Shown: positions 26,632-34,772, counted from the first letter of the stretch. The stretch is DNA of 34,772 bases from Bacteroidales bacterium (GCA_047972845.1 JBKEBB010000092.1:1-34772), one strand, 5' to 3'. Translations and numbers: made by a program. Notes: generated from the letters alone by a model not told the origin.

Positions 26632-28110
26632 ATGTCTGAATCTATTTCAAGAAGAGATTTCTTGCGCAGAGGTGCTATTGCAGCAGCAGGAATAACTGTT
26701 GCCCCAAGCACAATTTTGGGTAAAAAGTGGGGACACACCGCTCCTACTGACAAACTGAATATCGCCGGTATTGGTGTCGGAGGTATGGGTAACTCTAACC
26801 TTACCCAGATGAGAACCGAGAACATTGTTGCACTTTGCGACGTGGACTGGAAATATTCTGCAAAGGTGTTTGAAAGATATCCTGATGCTAAGAAATATTG
26901 GGATTATCGTAAGTTGTTCGACGAAATGGGTAAATCAATTGACGCCATCATGTGTGCGACAGCTGACCATACTCACGCCATCATCACTGCTGATGCCATT
27001 ACAATGGGCAAACACGCCTATACTCAAAAGCCTTTGACTCACTCGGTATATGAGTCTCGACTTTTAACAAAATTGGCTGACAAGTATCAAGTAGCTACTC
27101 AAATGGGTAACCAAGGATCATCTGGCGAAGGCGTTCGCAAGATCTGCGATTGGATCTGGACTGGTGAGATTGGAGAAATCAAGAAAGTTGAAGCTGCTAC
27201 AAACCGTCCTATTTGGCCACAAGGTTTGATGACTCCCGCTAAAGGTGACTGGGTTCCCGAAACATTGAACTGGGATCTATTTACTGGTCCGGCTAACATG
27301 CGTCCATACAACGAAGTATATCACCCATGGAACTGGCGCGGTTGGTGGGATTATGGTACAGGTGCTTTGGGTGATATGGCTTGCCACATCCTGCATCCAG
27401 TATTTAAAGCGTTGAAATTGGGATACCCAACAAAAGCTCAAGGTTCTTCAACTATGTTGCTACGTGACTGTGCTCCTCAAGCTCAACGCGTGAAATTGAC
27501 TTTCCCAGCTCGTCCAAAACATGGCAAATTGAACATGCCTGAGGTTGAGGTTTATTGGTATGACGGAGGTATGATGCCTGACCGTCCAGCAGGTTACCCT
27601 GATGGAAAACCTTTGATGCTCGAAGGTGGTGGTTTGGTTATTTTCCACGGAACAAAAGACACTCTTCTTTGCGGTTGCTATGGACAAAATCCTTGGTTAT
27701 TGTCAGGTCGTGTACCTACTAATGTTCCTAAAACTCAACGTGAAATTACAGTATCACACGAACAAGACTGGATCCGTGCTTGTAAAGAGCCTGCTGCTAC
27801 TCGCGTGAAAACAGCGTCTGACTTCTCTGAAGCAGTACCATTCAACGAAATGGTTGTGATGGGTGTATTGGCCGTTCGTCTGCAAGAATTGAACAAAGAG
27901 TTACTTTGGGATGGTCAAAACATGCGCTTTACCAACATTACTGATGACGACAAACTCAGAATCATCATTAAAGACGGATTTAGTGTGAAAGACGGACATC
28001 CTTCATTTAACAAAGAAATGACAGATCCTATCAATGCTAAGGCATTTGCTGAAGGATTGATCAAGCACAACTATCGCCAAGGCTGGAAATTGGTTGATAT
28101 GCCTAAATAA
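26632..28110 (+). CDS. Tat-exported Gfo/Idh/MocA family oxidoreductase, paralog 2
   Basis: SRRDFLRR signal; same motifs and same 492-aa length as paralog 1. Confidence 0.93.
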   Translation: MSESISRRDFLRRGAIAAAGITVAPSTILGKKWGHTAPTDKLNIAGIGVGGMGNSNLTQMRTENIVALCDVDWKYSAKVFERYPDAKKYWDYRKLFDEMGKSIDAIMCATADHTHAIITADAITMGKHAYTQKPLTHSVYESRLLTKLADKYQVATQMGNQGSSGEGVRKICDWIWTGEIGEIKKVEAATNRPIWPQGLMTPAKGDWVPETLNWDLFTGPANMRPYNEVYHPWNWRGWWDYGTGALGDMACHILHPVFKALKLGYPTKAQGSSTMLLRDCAPQAQRVKLTFPARPKHGKLNMPEVEVYWYDGGMMPDRPAGYPDGKPLMLEGGGLVIFHGTKDTLLCGCYGQNPWLLSGRVPTNVPKTQREITVSHEQDWIRACKEPAATRVKTASDFSEAVPFNEMVVMGVLAVRLQELNKELLWDGQNMRFTNITDDDKLRIIIKDGFSVKDGHPSFNKEMTDPINAKAFAEGLIKHNYRQGWKLVDMPK

Positions 28111-29974: not shown

Positions 29975-31189
29975 TTATTCTTCTTGTTTATTTCGAATGT
30001 CTCCTTCCACATAGAAGAAATACTCATCCGCGGAAGAAGAGGACAAGCCTGCTCCGGGAATTTTCTCCAGAGATTTATTCAAACGCAATATTGCCTGACG
30101 AATTGTTCCTTCAGAGACATACACATTCCAAACCTTCTTGATAAGTTGATCTTTGGGAAGTCTAAAATCCTTAGACAACAACAACGCCTCAAGAATTCTG
30201 AGAGATTGAGGGGTAAGATGAAGAAGGGAGTCCTTATAGAACAGTTGGCGACTTCGTTTATGGTAATAGGCATCGAATGTAAGAACAATATAATCTTCAC
30301 TATCTAACCCTTGCTCATACAGTTTCTTCAATTTCACACGCTCTGCTTCGTTCCGCTGATATTCATCTTCGATCGATCTCAACTGAGTAAGATCAGCGGC
30401 TCTTCGTTCCATTTGCTCTTTTTGCTTCTGCAATTGAACACTCTTCGCCTCCAGACTCATAAGTTGCTGCTCGGTCTTACTCAACGAAGCCATCAATCTA
30501 TTTTTATCCGCTACAATCTGATCAACCTTTTTTTTTGTACGGCTCTTCAGATAAATCAATCCAAGGAATATACAGAGAGCGATAAAGCTACCAAGAGAGA
30601 AGAATACCGGAGGTGACGAAATACGCATCCGATTGACAATCTCAAGAAATGGAATAGAGTACAACAAGCGCACATTCATTTGATCATCAACTCCTAATGG
30701 ATAATACACCTCACGTGAGTTTGGGAACATAAATCGGAGGGTATCACCTATAACTTCCGTAGTTTTATCAATCTTAGCATGTATTAACGCATAGTCAATA
30801 CTAATATTTTTATCGGCTAAATTTTGTTGTACAAGACTATCTACAACTTGAAACTTCAAAGGAAAAAATAATGATCCAACAGACTGCGTTACTAATCTGT
30901 CCTTTTCTGCGGCAGAGGCAGATTTAAATCGTCCTGATTTGACGAAATTAAAAATACCAGTTGGAATTGCAATGGGTATAGTGTCAGAATTATGATTGGC
31001 CATCATCCCGTCTGTAAAGAATGGCATTCCCTGCAATCGGATCCGCTCTTCCTCTCTTAAAGATTTATCCAATATTTCTGACACAAGCGGGGAAATCCCA
31101 CTTTTTGAACTCTGGAAACCGATGTACCCAGAGATCGAACAAAGAGCAAGAAGCACCGTTGAAACCGCAATATTTCGTAGCCAGATCAT
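29975..31189 (-). CDS. Membrane-anchored one-component regulator: periplasmic domain, TM helix, coiled coil, OmpR/PhoB-type winged HTH
   Basis: Hydrophobic N-terminus; second TM FFSLGSFIALCIFLGLIYL; about 70-aa heptad-rich region; LTPQSLRILEALL...KDQLIKKVW...TIRQAILRLNKSL resembling Trans_reg_C; no receiver domain. Confidence 0.8.
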   Translation of the reverse strand: MIWLRNIAVSTVLLALCSISGYIGFQSSKSGISPLVSEILDKSLREEERIRLQGMPFFTDGMMANHNSDTIPIAIPTGIFNFVKSGRFKSASAAEKDRLVTQSVGSLFFPLKFQVVDSLVQQNLADKNISIDYALIHAKIDKTTEVIGDTLRFMFPNSREVYYPLGVDDQMNVRLLYSIPFLEIVNRMRISSPPVFFSLGSFIALCIFLGLIYLKSRTKKKVDQIVADKNRLMASLSKTEQQLMSLEAKSVQLQKQKEQMERRAADLTQLRSIEDEYQRNEAERVKLKKLYEQGLDSEDYIVLTFDAYYHKRSRQLFYKDSLLHLTPQSLRILEALLLSKDFRLPKDQLIKKVWNVYVSEGTIRQAILRLNKSLEKIPGAGLSSSSADEYFFYVEGDIRNKQEE

Positions 31190-31223
31190 AAGAAAGAGGT
31201 GTTATTAACATTATTTTCGTAAA

Positions 31224-31281
31224 GTCACCAAAAATGTAACGGCAAAAGTAGTATGTTTTCTCGAATAATCCACGTAATTTG
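31224..31281 (+). promoter_or_regulatory. Divergent promoter region with candidate regulator box
   Basis: GTCACCAAAAATGTAACG (31224-31241); minus-strand TACTTTTG at 31243-31250 for the regulator; plus-strand non-canonical GTAATTTG at 31274-31281 for the NVEALA gene. Confidence 0.55.
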
Positions 31282-31311
31282 CAAGTAATAATTTAAACTC
31301 AAAAAACAACT

Positions 31312-31626
31312 ATGAAGAAGGTGAAAAAGTCAATTCGAAGCATGGTGTTGGTTGCGGGGATCGCAATCATCGCCGGAGCGGCATCCTATTTGGTTACCCC
31401 CAAGATGAACCCGTCCAATCTATTGCTTGACAACGTGGAGGCTTTGGCTAATGACGAAAGTGGGCCAGGATATATGTGCTTTGCATGGGGCCCACTTGAT
31501 TGTCCCGCAGGACCCAAAGTGTATGCTATTGTGGGAGGACAATATTCAAGTTCAAGCTATAGCACAACCAGTTTCAGCACAACCAGCACAAGCTTAACTA
31601 CTACCAATCTAAAATTGACTAAATGA
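31312..31626 (+). CDS. NVEALA-domain peptide with Ser/Thr-rich tail
   Basis: Basic-hydrophobic N-terminus, LLLDNVEALANDE motif, two Cys (CFAWGPLDCP); stop overlaps the next start (ATGA). Confidence 0.9.
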   Translation: MKKVKKSIRSMVLVAGIAIIAGAASYLVTPKMNPSNLLLDNVEALANDESGPGYMCFAWGPLDCPAGPKVYAIVGGQYSSSSYSTTSFSTTSTSLTTTNLKLTK

Positions 31627-32675
31627 GATTTTTCTGGCTACTGCTCGTATTAACCGGATGCGTCATGAGTCCCAAAGAAAATGGCGCATCCGATAATACT
31701 ATCGAAAATCAACATGCTATCCAAGGGGGAAAAATAGGATCTGCCGATTCTATTATGATGCGTTACCCCTTTCGCATTCGTATTCTTGATTCAATCGCTT
31801 TAATACACGACCTGCACAACGAGGAGAATTATCTTCATGCCTTCACCTATCCAGAGATGAGGCCTATTGTTTCATTTGGGAAACGAGGAAACGGGCCGGG
31901 AGAGCTACTTATTGTTGAAAACATCCGATTCTTTTCACTGGATTCCATTTGGGTGCTCGATTCAAACAAAAATGAGATTACCCGTTGGAGTCTTTCAGTT
32001 GAGAATCACACTGCCACTTTAGAACAAAAAATTTCCATCGACAAACAGGTAAGTAGAGCGCTTGATTTTGCAGTAACCGATGAAGGATTTATCATCCCCG
32101 GCTATTTAGGAGAGTATCGCTTGCACCATTTGAATTTCGACGGAAAAGTGACATCCTCCGAAGGGGAGATTCCATGTAATAACCCGGAGCAATTCAAAGA
32201 TTACAAACCGGCGCTGGCGCAAGCATGGAGAAGTTTCATCGATTACAATCCGGTAAACAGACAAATCGTACTCGCCACACAACTTGGGGAGGTGCTCGAA
32301 CTGATTGGTCCCGACCAGCAGCATGTAGTTATTAAGGGAAAAGGGGGAGACCCCGTGTTTAATGTATCACAACAATGGGCCATTCCAGCCGGCATCATGG
32401 GATACTGGGATATACAACTCACTCAAAACCGCATATACGCGATTTTTCAAGGAGAGAAAATGAGTGATGTTCAAGCAAAAATAGAACAAAATATAACTCA
32501 ACAGAATGGGGGGCAACAACTATACGTATTTGACACCGAAGGAAACTCCCTTGCTAAGTACATACTTGACACTCCGATTTCGGGGTTCACCGTAAACGAA
32601 GAAACAAATACATTGGTAGGACTGGATGTAAACAGCAATACGCCTGTTACAACCTTTCACCTTCCAAAATTATAG
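31623..32675 (+). CDS. BF3164-like / TolB-like 6-bladed beta-propeller lipoprotein
   Basis: Lipobox VLTGC; MRYPFRIR, FGKRGNGPGE, ALAQAWRSFIDYNP, ATQLGEVLE; translationally coupled to NVEALA. Confidence 0.85.
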   Translation: MRFFWLLLVLTGCVMSPKENGASDNTIENQHAIQGGKIGSADSIMMRYPFRIRILDSIALIHDLHNEENYLHAFTYPEMRPIVSFGKRGNGPGELLIVENIRFFSLDSIWVLDSNKNEITRWSLSVENHTATLEQKISIDKQVSRALDFAVTDEGFIIPGYLGEYRLHHLNFDGKVTSSEGEIPCNNPEQFKDYKPALAQAWRSFIDYNPVNRQIVLATQLGEVLELIGPDQQHVVIKGKGGDPVFNVSQQWAIPAGIMGYWDIQLTQNRIYAIFQGEKMSDVQAKIEQNITQQNGGQQLYVFDTEGNSLAKYILDTPISGFTVNEETNTLVGLDVNSNTPVTTFHLPKL

Positions 32676-32812
32676 TATATGAGATACCAGTTTTTTTAAT
32701 CATTACTAAACATACACCTTAAAATATAAGTCTATAGAGATCTACAATTAAACAAAGAATAGACTCATTTCATGTAAAAATAGAAATGAGGGAGGATCCA
32801 AATTATGCTATG

Positions 32813-32919
32813 AAAAAACCGGAAATAGTTTTTCCGTTTTGTTTGGTGGGTGGGGTCCGGACGTTGCTTTAATCGGGTTTTGTGTTTGCACCCGAAGCAT
32901 ATGCCGGACCCCTTGCCCA
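32813..32919 (-). ncRNA. Candidate structured small RNA (long hairpin plus terminator)
   Basis: GGGGTCCGG (32852-32860) / CCGGACCCC (32904-32912) with inner TGCT/AGCA and TCGGGT/ACCCGA stems; followed on the minus strand by CGGAAA-AACTA-TTTCCG-G-TTTTTT. Confidence 0.4.
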
Positions 32920-33511
32920 TTAATAGAGCTCAATTAAACAACATATTATATTCAATCCATTAATTCCCAATTGATATCAAGATTGGATTAATAACAGGAT
33001 ACTATTATTCCCAACTCAATTCCATTAGTGCATCAAAGGTTTTCCGTCAGAGTATTATGCCGGATGGTCAGTCATCATACCAGCGTACATAAGAACCAAC
33101 ACCTAGTACCATACAAATTCCATTTGCATATAGAGTAAGAATCACTCCTCTTGAATGCAGACCACAACTACAAAACCATAGACATCTCTTAAAATCCCTG
33201 TTTTGGTCGGTACATTCCACAAGCACCCTCTATTAAGTCCTGGAAAAAGAAGAATCATATTCATCGTACAAATGGGACTAAAACAACCCTACGGATTCGC
33301 TATCCCTGAAGACAACAAAAGGTCAAAGGTAACTACACAAAAGAATAGGTCGTGTCTAAAACGAAATGAAACATTCGACAAAGCAAAATCATCTACCAGA
33401 CAAGAAAAATCACAAAAGGGCTTAAAAGGCAAGAAAACAGCAAAAAGAGGGGAAGAATAGCCGATGGAACCGATAGATACAACCATAATAAAAAATCTCA
33501 CGTTAGAAATT

Positions 33512-33611
33512 ATGACAAAAAAAGTAACAAAAGTTTCTACAGAAAATCAGGTTACGACAGAAAATGTAACGCGAAATATTGCATACCCCTCAAATTTTGT
33601 TTATTTCTTTG
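33512..33611 (+). promoter_or_regulatory. Promoter with two candidate regulator boxes
   Basis: ATGACAAAAAAAGTAAC (33512-33528) and ACGACAGAAAATGTAACG (33554-33571), 42 bp apart; non-canonical -7 TTTCTTTG at 33604-33611. Confidence 0.5.
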
Positions 33612-33842
33612 CACATAAATGATGACATTCATACCATCGGCAACTTCTCTCTCTTTATCGAGAATATTCGATCTACAAACTGAAATGTCGCGATGCAATG
33701 AATAAATTCTAAGGAAAACAGATTACTTCAGAAGAAAATACACTCATTATTTAGATACAGTGAAAGGTCTATTCTACTAAAAAGAGAGAAAAATTGTGGT
33801 TTAACTCAATTATACACGTTTAAAACTATCATCACCCTACGA

Positions 33843-34772
33843 ATGAAACCAACCAAGCTCTTATTACTACTATTAGTAATTACCTCCTGCACGAGTAAAT
33901 CCTCGAGGCTGGATACGGCGTTGCAATTGGCTGGTGAGAATCGTCCAGAACTCGAAAAGGTGTTATCTCACTACCATTCCGATCCTAATGACAGTTTAAA
34001 GTATCAAGCTGCCTGTTTTCTTATCGAAAACATGCCGTACCATTACTACTATGAAGGAAAACTATTGGATCAATTCAGTACTGTTTACGAAGCCCTAAAA
34101 CGGGTGAAAGATGCTTCAGCCGTGTTGGATTCATTGACCTTACGCTTTGGGAACTTCTCTCTTAGCAGTGTTCAGCTGAAACACGACATCACCTCTCTAC
34201 AATCCTCTTATCTCATCGAAAACATCGATTTAGCGTTCCGCGTATGGGAAGAGCAACCTTGGTGCAAACACATCCCTTTCGATCAATTCTGTCGATTTAT
34301 TCTTCCCTACAGGGTAAACAATGAACAGCCCGACAGCACTCGGCGCATTCTATACGAAAAATACAATCCACTACTTGACAGCCTCCGTCAAACCGGGAAT
34401 GCGGAAGATCCTCTTACGGCGGCGCAAGTATTAATCTCGACCCTCGCAAAAGTAGTCAACTTCTTTACCGCCCAAGCCTCACGCATTCCTCTTGCCTCTC
34501 CTCTTCTGATGGATAAATACAGAGCAGGCTCCTGTCGGGATATGGCTGACCTGACCGTTTCTATTTTCAGGGCGGTAGGGATTCCTTCCGGTATTGAATT
34601 TATACCCATACATGGATGTTTGAATACATCACACTGCTGGACATTTATTCTCGACAAAAAAGGAGACACCTACACTTCAGACTATTTGGCCGACAAGATT
34701 CTTCCTACAACAGAAACACTCCACCAAACCGCGAAGATATTTAGAGAACTCTTTGAAGTAAACCAATCTCTT
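33843..34772 (+). CDS. Transglutaminase-like domain lipoprotein, truncated by the window end (not in the ORF track)
   Basis: Manually translated open frame of 310 codons with no stop: MKPTKLLLLLLVITSC lipobox, ALQLAGENRPELEKVLSHY, AACFLIENM, ILPYRV, GSCRDMA..IFRAVGIP, SHCW (Cys/His of a transglutaminase/papain-like core). Confidence 0.85.
   Translation, partial: MKPTKLLLLLLVITSCTSKSSRLDTALQLAGENRPELEKVLSHYHSDPNDSLKYQAACFLIENMPYHYYYEGKLLDQFSTVYEALKRVKDASAVLDSLTLRFGNFSLSSVQLKHDITSLQSSYLIENIDLAFRVWEEQPWCKHIPFDQFCRFILPYRVNNEQPDSTRRILYEKYNPLLDSLRQTGNAEDPLTAAQVLISTLAKVVNFFTAQASRIPLASPLLMDKYRAGSCRDMADLTVSIFRAVGIPSGIEFIPIHGCLNTSHCWTFILDKKGDTYTSDYLADKILPTTETLHQTAKIFRELFEVNQSL

Follow-up and report, generated by a model that had tools for sequence, protein, structure and literature searches.

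The window, i.e. the whole stretch of DNA that was analysed (34,772 nucleotides from a Bacteroidales bacterium, GCA_047972845.1), ends in four genes. The first of them lies on the minus strand (29975-31189) and encodes a regulator of 404 amino acids, here called REG, with a Trans_reg_C domain at residues 323-378. A divergent control region (31190-31311) with an imperfect triple AAAGT-type repeat separates it from a plus-strand gene (31312-31626) for an NVEALA pre-peptide of 104 amino acids (PF14055). The following plus-strand gene (31623-32675) codes for a propeller lipoprotein of 350 amino acids (TolB_like, PF15869), and its ATG overlaps the TGA of the peptide gene as ATGA. Finally, a plus-strand gene for a transglutaminase-like lipoprotein (33843-34772; PF01841) is open at its 3' end and covers the N-terminal 310 amino acids, because the window is an entire contig and the gene is truncated at the contig end. 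All four open reading frames are present where an earlier sequence-only reading of this DNA had placed them, and the overlapping codons bear out the translational coupling that it had proposed for peptide and propeller. The transglutaminase-like gene does exist, but it does not follow the propeller gene directly, as had been claimed, since 1,167 bp without an ORF of at least 90 amino acids (32676-33842) and a terminator-like hairpin with a T run intervene. The hairpin (32820-32836, plus strand), located 145 nt past the propeller stop codon, is a weak call because such sites are about as many in this region as in shuffled sequences. The ORF-free stretch contains no remnant of any island family (HMM scores all near 0 bits) and no Rfam family, the single match being at chance level (E 0.88). 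At this position, related loci carry a thioredoxin-like/DUF1573 gene and additional peptide-propeller cassettes. The thioredoxin-like gene, which is missing from the window, is found on another contig of the same genome (C353). RNA-library contigs from two studies map to REG, to the peptide and propeller genes and to the beginning of the transglutaminase-like gene, a match that consists of contigs only and for which DNA carry-over is possible.

REG had been described as a kinase-free transmembrane regulator, and the domain searches agree: Trans_reg_C was detected (29.1 bits, cut-off 26.2, Pfam HMM), and neither a receiver (Response_reg) nor a kinase domain was matched. Two hydrophobic segments (about residues 6-24 and 193-214, read from the sequence) enclose an outer domain of about 170 residues, so that the topology is that of a histidine-kinase sensor and not that of ToxR. 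From the N-terminus, the protein consists of a first membrane segment, the outer sensor domain, a second membrane segment, a long cytoplasmic helix and a C-terminal winged helix of the OmpR/PhoB type. The AF2 model (pLDDT 84.8) shows the same order, with two membrane helices, the outer domain and the long helix in the N-terminal 300 residues (helices 2-52 and 193-294) and the winged helix at residues 300-394. The modelled C-terminal domain superposes on the effector domains of SaeR and PhoB (TMt 0.74-0.80) and fits onto PhoB bound to pho-box DNA. Assignment to the OmpR/PhoB-type response regulators was rejected, as the effector domain is there and the receiver with its phospho-accepting Asp is not. 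ToxR and CadC are transmembrane transcription regulators (PMC5430869), and Rsp of Neisseria gonorrhoeae is a chimera in which the PilS receptor is fused to the DNA-binding domain of PilR (PMC10269533). Like these proteins, a single REG protein would sense outside the cell and is predicted to bind DNA from the membrane. Moreover, like Rsp, it looks like the input of a sensor kinase joined to the output of a response regulator with the phosphorelay removed, although the DNA-binding domain of Rsp is of the PilR type and that of REG of the OmpR type. Membership in the ToxR-like family was also rejected: ToxR and CadC have an N-terminal winged helix and one membrane span, whereas REG has the inverted order, with a C-terminal winged helix, and two spans. 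REG would work like a ToxR-type regulator without belonging to that family. PMC10269533 reports an enrichment of transmembrane regulators of this kind in the Bacteroidota; the REG family may already be counted in its supplementary data.

The sensor of REG appears to be homologous to the sensor of histidine kinases that occupy the equivalent position in other loci. The N-terminus of the REG family aligns with the sensors of NVEALA-adjacent histidine kinases over 180 columns (hhalign probability 98.1, E 9.4e-14), and an HMM of the REG N-terminus matches the kinases of loci L042 (75 bits) and L025 (52 bits). This homology is based on profiles: pairwise BLASTP between REG and the kinase sensors was not significant (E 2-3), and REG was not recovered at E values up to 10 by an HMM built solely from the kinase N-termini. 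The same type of sensor occurs in a REG paralogue on contig C315 of the same genome, in a REG-like gene (G525:C77) and in kinase/response regulator pairs of two further genomes (G543, G546), in each case outside the islands and with no NVEALA or propeller gene nearby. Such sensors are hence not confined to the islands.

The pre-peptide of the window matches PF14055 with 36.3 bits (cut-off 27). It consists of a basic N-terminus, a hydrophobic stretch, the motif LLLDNVEALANDE (with DNVEALA at residues 40-46, downstream of the hydrophobic stretch), a loop C56-x7-C64 and a Ser/Thr-rich tail that was not found in the other proximal peptides compared. The proposed combination of a conserved leader and a variable Cys-containing core is supported by alignments and by leader statistics over 178 peptides, in which N (98%), E (97%), A (100%), L (97%) and A (98%) of the motif are conserved. 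The conserved A-L-A places Ala at positions -3 (100%) and -1 (98%) of a putative cleavage site. In the same peptides, a median of about 20 residues separates the end of a 16-residue uncharged stretch from that of the motif, so that A-L-A lies farther from the hydrophobic stretch than in ordinary signal peptides. Furthermore, Glu at position +3 is 93% conserved, which the specificity of signal peptidase I does not explain.

Two sets of loci were compared, a first one of 27 loci and a second one of 80 loci for which the propeller, rather than the regulator, served as the anchor; the counts overstate independence because the sets share at least two loci and hold many close relatives. Exactly two cysteines spaced 6-7 apart are present in all 10 regulator-adjacent peptides of the first set and in none of the 28 other motif-bearing peptides. 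Within the second set, 57 of the 65 regulator-adjacent peptides have exactly two cysteines with a seven-residue loop; seven of the remainder have a third cysteine and one lacks the motif. Among the other 84 peptides of this set, 17 have two cysteines and 40 have four. The pattern C-x-G-x-G-S-x-D/E-C recurs in 57/65 proximal peptides and across genera. Judged by sequence, the regulator-proximal peptide is a distinct conserved class, C-x7-C, and the peptides further downstream in the islands have hypervariable Cys-rich cores.

The propeller protein matches PF15869 with 228.9 bits (cut-off 29.2), and its AF2 model is all-beta (pLDDT 92.3, pTM 0.89). The fold is six-bladed and of the NHL type: Foldseek matched it to the NHL propellers of Thin, TRIM71/Lin41 and Brat and to BF0058 of Bacteroides fragilis (PDB 4raa) with E values of 2e-10 to 7e-10 and TMq of 0.56-0.59. 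The window protein shares with the NHL propellers the six-bladed fold and a ligand on the central face, which is here a modelled one, but sequence identity to them and to BF0058 is only 11-16%. The eukaryotic NHL propellers are cytoplasmic binders of RNA or proteins, and BF0058 has no described function. That the propeller may bind the peptide core, as had been suggested, is predicted by a complex model with a score of 0.84, the best of three controls reaching 0.05. In a benchmark, 58 of the 80 solved complexes and 2 of the 110 mismatched pairs attained the mark for this score; this calibration holds only roughly because the alignments were built in this analysis. The model runs have at least 68% of their contacts in common, with a partner pLDDT of at least 55, and the modelled interface comprises peptide residues 53-76, i.e. 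the Cys loop and the next strand, and not the leader. Across 32 sequences of the propeller family, one column is invariant and three are nearly so. A family almost without invariant residues fits a binder and does not fit an enzyme.

What ties the regulator to the promoter of the peptide gene is its location and, in relatives, the presence of phased direct repeats. Upstream of the regulator-proximal peptide gene, a tandem 9-mer repeat (at least 8/9 matches) was found in 47 of 61 regions, with a period of 11 bp in 30 of these 47. Such repeats occurred in 11/129 other intergenic regions, in 10/75 regions that precede other NVEALA genes and in 120/1,220 shuffles. In the control region of the window itself, the best repeat has only 7/9 matches and does not exceed the control level; loci L099 and L106 contain one 9-mer of the window in their repeat unit, and that of L104 is one base off. 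Across the relatives, the repeat unit and the recognition helix of REG change together.

The co-conservation of regulator, peptide and propeller was likewise upheld. The NVEALA gene is directly followed by a propeller gene on the same strand in 34 of 39 cases in the first set, and by a propeller gene in 125 of 152 in the second. A sensor-regulator lies directly upstream and in divergent orientation in 10 of the 27 loci, four being of the REG type and six consisting of a histidine kinase and a response regulator. Within the 80 propeller-anchored loci, the REG family is present in 63 and adjoins an NVEALA gene in 60, and 51 have regulator, peptide and propeller in an uninterrupted row; loci bearing the triad come from at least eight genera. 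REG is divergent in 27/29 loci of Parabacteroides, and it is on the same strand in 16/29 loci of Bacteroides. The island is carried by many gut and sludge Bacteroidales, and cultivable human gut Parabacteroides and Bacteroides often contain it several times per genome. The pairwise identities of peptide core, sensor, winged helix and propeller correlate equally weakly (Spearman 0.33-0.49); these values do not discriminate between pairs and give no link from the peptide to the REG sensor. The window is a minimal form of this conserved Bacteroidales island, with a single peptide-propeller cassette and no thioredoxin-like gene. Apart from the window, the proximal peptide stands alone in two islands (L086 and L126).

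The last genes of the islands encode the transglutaminase-like protein, a signal peptidase of the S26 type and a Wzy_C/TPR protein. The latter two and the thioredoxin-like/DUF1573 lipoprotein are island members too, which the sequence-only reading did not contain. The transglutaminase-like protein matches PF01841 with 26 bits (cut-off 23); its Cys and His are invariant in 10/10 family members, and the third residue, Asp, is not. Complete family members have 633-705 amino acids and a C-terminal discoidin/CBM-like domain, and the C-terminal part matches PDB 2yb7 (E 8e-23). The C-terminal 357 residues of the window's protein open another contig of the same genome (C306), where an S26 signal peptidase gene follows directly; no joining sequence overlap was found between the two contigs. 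Among 301 genomes of the same order, the transglutaminase-like family occurs in 48 and NVEALA in 12, the transglutaminase-like gene being present in 10 of the 12 genomes with NVEALA and in 38 of the 289 without. A propeller or NVEALA gene lies nearby in only 3 of 20 loci around members of the family, which makes the role of this protein as a part of the system weaker than had been claimed. The gene is tied to the system only loosely. Taken together, the quorum-sensing-like or RiPP-like circuit that the sequence-only reading had proposed is supported in part.

We favour the tentative explanation that the locus is a REG-controlled peptide-propeller signalling module within a conserved cell-envelope island, and give it as a whole not quite an even chance. 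It builds on the gene order, the co-conservation, the domain homologies, the repeats in relatives and the modelled interface. REG would read a signal through its histidine-kinase-type outer domain and, held in the membrane, would bind the phased direct repeats ahead of the divergent peptide gene, which would form a two-gene operon with the coupled propeller gene. The signal-like N-terminus would export the pre-peptide, and a dedicated S26 signal peptidase would free the peptide, presumably by cutting after A-L-A of NVEALA. The two cysteines may then join and close the seven-residue loop, and the central face of the propeller, on the periplasmic side, would take in the Cys loop and the strand behind it. 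Because the class of the proximal peptide is conserved and the downstream peptides are hypervariable, the proximal pair is read as the signalling module of the island, which would feed back on the sensor domain of REG; of all these steps, including DNA binding by REG, the cleavage and the disulfide, it is above all this feedback that we infer. The transglutaminase-like, S26 and Wzy_C/TPR genes would provide a shared finishing machinery. A bolder version, which we hold to be possible yet doubtful, sees here a Bacteroidales peptide-signalling circuit of a kind undescribed in two-membrane bacteria: a conserved disulfide-loop peptide, which a private signal peptidase would cut from its signal-like NVEALA leader and which its own propeller lipoprotein would present, would act on a kinase-free receptor-transcription factor, and this switch would govern swappable arsenals of hypervariable Cys-rich peptides.

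The same genes could encode a bacteriocin and its immunity protein, with an antimicrobial peptide, a propeller that protects the producer and a REG protein that responds to an unrelated external stimulus, for example competitors or nutrients, while the peptide has no role in signalling. This alternative, which we rate as rather improbable, would account for the conserved leader, the hypervariable Cys-rich cores and the arrays with one cognate partner gene per peptide; moreover, the modelled hold of the propeller on the core is what one would expect of an immunity protein, and the scarcity of invariant residues in the propeller is binder-like rather than enzyme-like. However, the core of a toxin should show the variability of the downstream peptides, and the proximal peptide is conserved across genera (57/65) and is the only one in the window, L086 and L126. 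Furthermore, no outer-membrane export system recurs in the neighbourhoods, and neither does any transporter family, an ABC ATPase-like cluster appearing in two loci only. An acidic stretch behind the lipobox Cys is a surface-export signal in the Bacteroidota, and the propellers have no such stretch.

This lack of a surface-export motif in the lipoprotein partner suits a periplasmic surveillance or feedback role, in which a confined or tethered peptide informs REG about the state of disulfides or of processing in the envelope and no signalling between cells takes place. The small membrane protein MgrB with PhoQ and the lipoprotein NlpE with CpxA would be parallels. A small protein that has a hydrophobic segment at its N-terminus and two periplasmic cysteines, and that is encoded beside a sensor, would fit such a role, as would the thioredoxin-like partners in the islands and the barrier of the outer membrane, which peptides of about 30 residues or more do not readily cross. 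The invariant Ala at -3/-1 and the dedicated S26 peptidases argue, however, that the peptide is cut free, and the same leader occurs on hypervariable multi-Cys peptides that do not resemble sensors; we regard surveillance as unlikely.

Quite unlikely, in our view, is a RiPP-like product whose core is modified by the propeller, the transglutaminase-like or the Wzy_C/TPR protein (by cross-linking, glycosylation or amidation) before release. The leader-core architecture, the invariant Cys and His of the transglutaminase-like family, a Wzy_C+TPR+S26 fusion protein in L025 and the resemblance of the propeller model to peptidyl-alpha-hydroxyglycine alpha-amidating lyase (TMq 0.59) are in keeping with it, and the Ser/Thr-rich tail of the window peptide could take glycans. 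However, that tail is missing from the other proximal peptides compared, the propeller has no conserved catalytic residues, and the transglutaminase-like family is found mostly away from NVEALA genes. Moreover, no known RiPP or other modifying enzyme family recurs in the island neighbourhoods, and a term search of the text of a Bacteroidales RiPP-mining paper gave 0 occurrences of these components. A chance neighbourhood of four unrelated genes, for which the hairpin and 1.17 kb before the transglutaminase-like gene and the REG paralogue in an unrelated context on C315 might be cited, is highly improbable, as it is already contradicted for regulator, peptide and propeller by the triad in 51/80 loci from at least eight genera and is opposed by the enrichment of the transglutaminase-like gene in genomes with NVEALA.

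The favoured signalling module recalls the three-component regulation of class II bacteriocins in Gram-positive bacteria such as Carnobacterium, which consists of an inducer peptide, a histidine kinase and a response regulator (PMC1634752). As in those loci, the islands have a peptide next to the sensor-regulator that carries the leader of the variable peptides, a partner gene of its own for each further peptide gene, a putative dedicated leader peptidase and an own regulator with candidate direct-repeat operators. However, the leader in the islands is signal-like and ends in NVEALA, whereas that of the class II peptides is of the double-glycine type; an S26 signal peptidase stands in place of a C39 peptidase ABC transporter, and a 350-residue propeller lipoprotein in place of a small membrane immunity protein. 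REG contains neither kinase nor receiver, the host has two membranes, and no component is homologous to those described there. As for inducer-type sensing of the peptide by its own regulator, which marks the class II systems, the position and the conserved peptide class alone speak for it. Also related are the database-annotated cassettes of NVEALA, propeller and thioredoxin-like genes (PF14055, PF15869, PF17170), which have the same peptide family, the coupling, the conserved leader and variable Cys-rich cores; they differ from the window in that the latter has a single cassette and no thioredoxin-like gene. The literature searched yielded no study of what NVEALA proteins or their propeller partners do, the word NVEALA was absent from it, and PF15869, PF17170 and DUF5128 were not named in an NVEALA or propeller context.

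To these cassettes, the present analysis adds a kinase-free regulator, a C-x7-C peptide class, 11-bp repeats and an end module of transglutaminase-like, S26 and Wzy_C/TPR genes. An anonymous gene pair becomes a testable circuit with a regulator family, a candidate operator, a predicted binding pocket and a candidate processing enzyme, and the candidate ligand of about 30 residues is within reach of synthesis. REG would be a clear natural case of a two-component system that has collapsed into one membrane protein. If it is true that the proximal peptide is the signal of REG, this would mean peptide sensing in Gram-negative gut commensals, and it would provide a handle on the control of large, variable sets of secreted peptides in these bacteria.

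Co-conservation, which the sequence-only reading had named as the test for a peptide-centred circuit of four genes, was found for the regulator, the peptide and the propeller, which form a contiguous triad in 51 of the 80 loci that were collected with the propeller as anchor. The four genes themselves were confirmed in the window by ORF calling and Pfam searches. The kinase-free membrane regulator REG (29975-31189, minus strand; 404 aa) carries a Trans_reg_C domain (29.1 bits; cut-off 26.2). The NVEALA peptide (31312-31626, plus strand; 104 aa) scores 36.3 bits against its Pfam family (cut-off 27), and the stop codon of its gene overlaps with the start codon of the propeller gene in the sequence ATGA. 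The propeller lipoprotein (31623-32675, plus strand; 350 aa) matches TolB_like with 228.9 bits. The transglutaminase-like lipoprotein starts at 33843 on the plus strand and runs to the end of the contig (310 aa, 3' end open); it matches Transglut_core with 26 bits (cut-off 23). None of the four proteins reached the cut-off of an NCBIfam family.

PF14055 was detected above cut-off in 9 of 301 sampled genomes of the same order (12 of 301 at E values up to 0.001) and in 2 of 401 genomes of a phylum sample, whereby a six-frame search may miss copies of a family as short as NVEALA. For a first set of loci, 26 neighbourhoods were fetched around all NVEALA matches, ORFs were called and clustered, and HMMs were built. 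A propeller gene follows directly 3' on the same strand in 34 of 39 mapped NVEALA genes, the window included, and belongs to the TolB_like type in 19 and to the DUF5128 type in 15 cases. Among the 27 loci, the recurrent neighbours are a thioredoxin-like lipoprotein that ends in DUF1573 (14/27), the transglutaminase-like protein (10/27) and a cluster (10/27) that according to Pfam consists of two families, the S26 signal peptidases and the Wzy_C (O-antigen-ligase-like) proteins with TPR. Both families were joined by a single protein of 901 aa (L025:5181-7886, minus strand), which contains Wzy_C, TPR and Peptidase_S26; in other islands these are encoded by separate neighbouring genes. Such a fusion is a hint at joint action of the signal peptidase and the ligase-like protein. 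In 10 loci of the first set, a sensor-regulator is located directly upstream of and divergent from the NVEALA gene, and it is either of the REG type (4) or a histidine kinase with an OmpR-type response regulator (6).

A search for related loci with a single propeller sequence yielded no relative. With an alignment of six window-type propellers, the second set of 80 loci was obtained from named genomes of Parabacteroides (29), Bacteroides (29) and, for the remainder, Tannerellaceae and others; at least two of them represent DNA that was already in the first set. The genes of an island are usually arranged as REG, NVEALA, propeller, thioredoxin-like/DUF1573 protein, more NVEALA-propeller cassettes, transglutaminase-like protein, and S26 and Wzy_C/TPR proteins. 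The REG family is present in 63 of the 80 loci and adjoins an NVEALA gene in 60. Since flanks of 6 kb were used and the island is often cut by a contig end, the numbers of loci with a thioredoxin-like gene (at least 64), a transglutaminase-like gene (at least 37) and an S26 or Wzy_C/TPR gene (at least 36) are lower bounds. The closest relative of the window's propeller (49% identity) lies in a typical island on a 3.9-kb contig (L063) of a bin labelled Clostridiales, and this contig may be misbinned.

Several islands can occur in one genome (L064, L067, L068 and L116 in one; L071, L078 and L081 in another), and the islands within each of these genomes differ in their regulators, recognition helices and repeat units. 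Regulators of different triads have a mean identity of 26-27% and propellers one of 56%, so that divergence is much faster in the regulator. Going by these comparisons, the divergence of the regulators and the genomes with multiple islands would fit with insulation between parallel circuits. Correlations between the identities of peptide core, sensor, winged helix and propeller across the triads did not discriminate.

The genome of the window (2.99 Mb, 392 contigs, estimated to be 94% complete) holds further parts of the island, the window being one whole contig. Contig C306 opens with the 357 C-terminal residues that the window's transglutaminase-like protein lacks, followed by an S26 signal peptidase of 304 aa with Ser and Lys boxes and by a sugar kinase. 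No sequence overlap joins the two contigs; they are linked because the two halves match consecutive parts of full-length transglutaminase-like relatives. A short contig (C353) carries a truncated Wzy_C/TPR gene, a thioredoxin-like/DUF1573 gene and a second S26 gene. Moreover, about 25 further propeller paralogues of the TolB_like or DUF5128 type are spread over about 24 contigs (e.g. C252, C296, C244, C215, C117 and C140). Many of them lie on contigs of 2-3 kb, and the assembly seems to break around these paralogues. The window's NVEALA gene is the only one in the genome, and neither a peptide gene nor a small ORF containing Cys was found upstream of the other propeller genes. Islands that have the regulator-proximal peptide alone were also observed elsewhere (L086 and L126).

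The REG family only appears to be rare. A word-based protein search with REG returned one relative (93% identity) and an exhaustive search of 1.84 billion representatives 22 relatives (E values up to 0.001), whereas a profile detected the family in the 63 island loci. The relatives are uniformly built and about 330-490 aa long. A profile of the N-terminal parts of the family aligns with the sensors of the NVEALA-adjacent kinases (probability 98.1, E 9.4e-14) over 180 columns that span both membrane helices, and the N-terminal HMM of REG matches two of these kinases with 75 and 52 bits. Pairwise BLASTP between REG and the kinase sensors was not significant, and an HMM built from the N-termini of the kinases alone did not recover REG. 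Judged by the profile matches, REG is predicted to combine the sensor of a kinase with the output domain of a response regulator. In the AF2 model (pLDDT 84.8), a long first helix precedes a mixed alpha/beta outer domain (residues 70-186), and the second membrane helix extends into a cytoplasmic helix of roughly 100 residues that leads to the winged helix. The latter superposes on the effector domains of SaeR and PhoB. Foldseek with the whole model gave matches for the winged helix only and none for the sensor domain, for which the ESM Atlas returned only unnamed Bacteroidota clusters. ToxR and CadC differ from REG by the opposite order of domains. The nearest described case that we found is the gonococcal PilS-PilR chimera Rsp, as presented in the introduction of PMC10269533. 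The REG-type sensor domain is not private to the NVEALA-propeller islands: four of nine examined proteins with this domain have no NVEALA or propeller gene nearby. One of these four is a REG paralogue in the window's own genome (C315:4196-5392, plus strand; 398 aa, scoring 298 bits against the family profile), which has unrelated neighbours, so the family has other targets too.

A candidate operator was found upstream of the regulator-proximal peptide genes. In 47 of 61 such regions there is a tandem direct 9-mer repeat (at least 8/9 matches, period of 9-12 bp), which is perfect in 22 regions, has a period of 11 bp in 30 and mostly lies 72-110 nt before the ATG. Such a repeat is present in 11 of 129 further intergenic regions from these loci, in 10 of 75 regions that precede other NVEALA genes and in 120 of 1,220 shuffled sequences. 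OmpR/PhoB-type domains bind tandem repeats that are one helical turn apart, and the structural matches of the REG winged helix include PhoB with pho-box DNA. The repeat unit depends on the locus and varies in step with the recognition helix of the regulator; kinship alone could be behind part of this covariation. The control region of the window contains an imperfect triple repeat (best 7/9), which is no better than the controls. A scan for sigma-70 promoters, which is ill-suited to Bacteroidota, gave a chance result (12 sites versus 11.8 expected).

By their Cys pattern, the regulator-adjacent peptides form a class of their own. In the first set, exactly two Cys residues spaced 6-7 residues apart are present in all 10 regulator-adjacent peptides and in none of the 28 other peptides with a recognisable motif. 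Of the 65 regulator-adjacent peptides in the second set, 57 contain exactly two Cys, which enclose a loop of 7 residues, usually in the pattern C-x-G-x-G-S-[VIL]-[DE]-C, seven have the loop and a third Cys, and one lacks the motif. The 84 peptides located elsewhere in the islands contain four (40), six (13) or two (17) Cys; seven have three, five or seven, and seven are without a recognisable motif. The window's peptide belongs to the regulator-adjacent class (C56-F-A-W-G-P-L-D-C64); its Ser/Thr-rich tail (residues 79-104; 31546-31623) was not seen in other regulator-proximal peptides. Among 178 peptides, the N-terminus contains three Lys/Arg at the median and an uncharged stretch of 16 residues, and about 20 residues further on follows the motif L-S-D-L-x-L-x-N-[VI]-E-A-L-A-x-G-E (N 98%, E 97%, A 100%, L 97%, A 98%, last E 93%). 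Ala at -3 and -1 follows the rule for signal peptidase I sites. From the Ala residues at these positions and the S26 genes of the islands, we infer that the pre-peptide would be cleaved after NVEALA. Such cleavage would account neither for the site's unusual separation from the hydrophobic core nor for the conservation of Glu at +3.

The model of the propeller (pLDDT 92.3, pTM 0.89) is similar to NHL propellers and to B. fragilis BF0058 and, less specifically, to peptide amidating lyase. An alignment of 32 family members has one invariant column and three nearly invariant ones, the lipobox Cys being among these three, and this conservation would fit a binding scaffold better than an enzyme. 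In Bacteroidota, an acidic run after the lipobox Cys is the surface-export motif; the propeller has no such run and would thus face the periplasm. In a FastTree phylogeny with many long branches, the regulator-proximal propellers are clustered (13 label changes versus 38.6 in shuffles), yet they form more than one clade. The modelled complex of peptide and propeller scored 0.84 and the best of three controls 0.05; 58 of 80 solved complexes attain the mark set for this score, as do 2 of 110 mismatched pairs, a calibration that is only rough because our own alignments were used. At least 68% of the contacts were shared between runs, and the partner pLDDT was at least 55. The confident contacts of the peptide involve residues 53-76, i.e. 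the Cys loop and the following strand, and exclude the NVEALA leader; on the propeller they run all around (e.g. residues 64-65, 147, 200, 203, 220-221 and 247-255). Residues that are invariant among the six closest propellers are slightly enriched in the interface (8/27 versus 59/350 overall). The model supports binding of the peptide to the propeller.

The lipobox Cys, the catalytic Cys and the His are invariant in 10 of 10 transglutaminase-like proteins, and the C-terminal part matches the carbohydrate-binding module 2yb7 (E 8e-23). The family occurs in 48 of 301 genomes of the order, namely 10 of the 12 in which NVEALA was matched and 38 of the remaining 289. Among 20 copies from other places, 9 are near an S26 or Wzy_C/TPR gene and 3 near a propeller or NVEALA gene. 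Thus, the transglutaminase-like protein is a frequent companion of the island, especially with the S26 gene, yet it is not specific. Away from the NVEALA islands (L050, L056, L058 and L059), the gene is often located beside gene pairs encoding proteins of about 1,000 and 500 aa, sizes that are typical of SusC/SusD pairs. Such neighbours may indicate a glycan-related role for the family.

In the window, 1,167 bp without an ORF separate the propeller gene from the transglutaminase-like gene. This stretch contains a terminator-like hairpin (32820-32836) and, directly 3' of it, a long GC-rich hairpin (32846-32920). The 285 nt from 32676 to 32960 fold with -71.5 kcal/mol (z -3.5 versus shuffles; 1 of 200 shuffles equally good), and Rfam gave a single chance-level match (E 0.88) between 31100 and 33900. 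That the stretch is the remnant of a decayed thioredoxin gene or cassette is unsupported, all island families scoring near 0 bits. A segment of 62 bp (33030-33091) shares 82% identity with 27559-27619, read on the reverse strand, inside an oxidoreductase-like ORF (26632-28110), and this similarity may be due to chance or to a small fragment.

Contigs from three RNA libraries of two studies match, with 93-99% identity, the genes of REG, the peptide (31362-31542) and the propeller as well as the start of the transglutaminase-like gene; they give neither ends, strand nor level, and carry-over of DNA is possible. None of the matched contigs covers the ORF-free stretch, which is no evidence of absence. 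The DNA is present in data sets from wastewater, sludge and digesters. The word NVEALA does not occur in the searched literature, and searches by Pfam and DUF names gave nothing relevant. Likewise, we found no report of a Cys-rich peptide or bacteriocin of Bacteroidales with a propeller lipoprotein, and a term search of a paper on RiPP mining in Bacteroidales for propeller, transglutaminase, signal peptidase, thioredoxin, DUF1573 and winged had no hit.

Taken together, the island most likely represents a regulated system for the production of an exported disulfide-loop peptide that has a propeller of its own to hold it. Feedback, the position of cleavage and the peptide's biological role are what we infer beyond this, and the regulator-proximal pair of peptide and propeller would be the signalling module.
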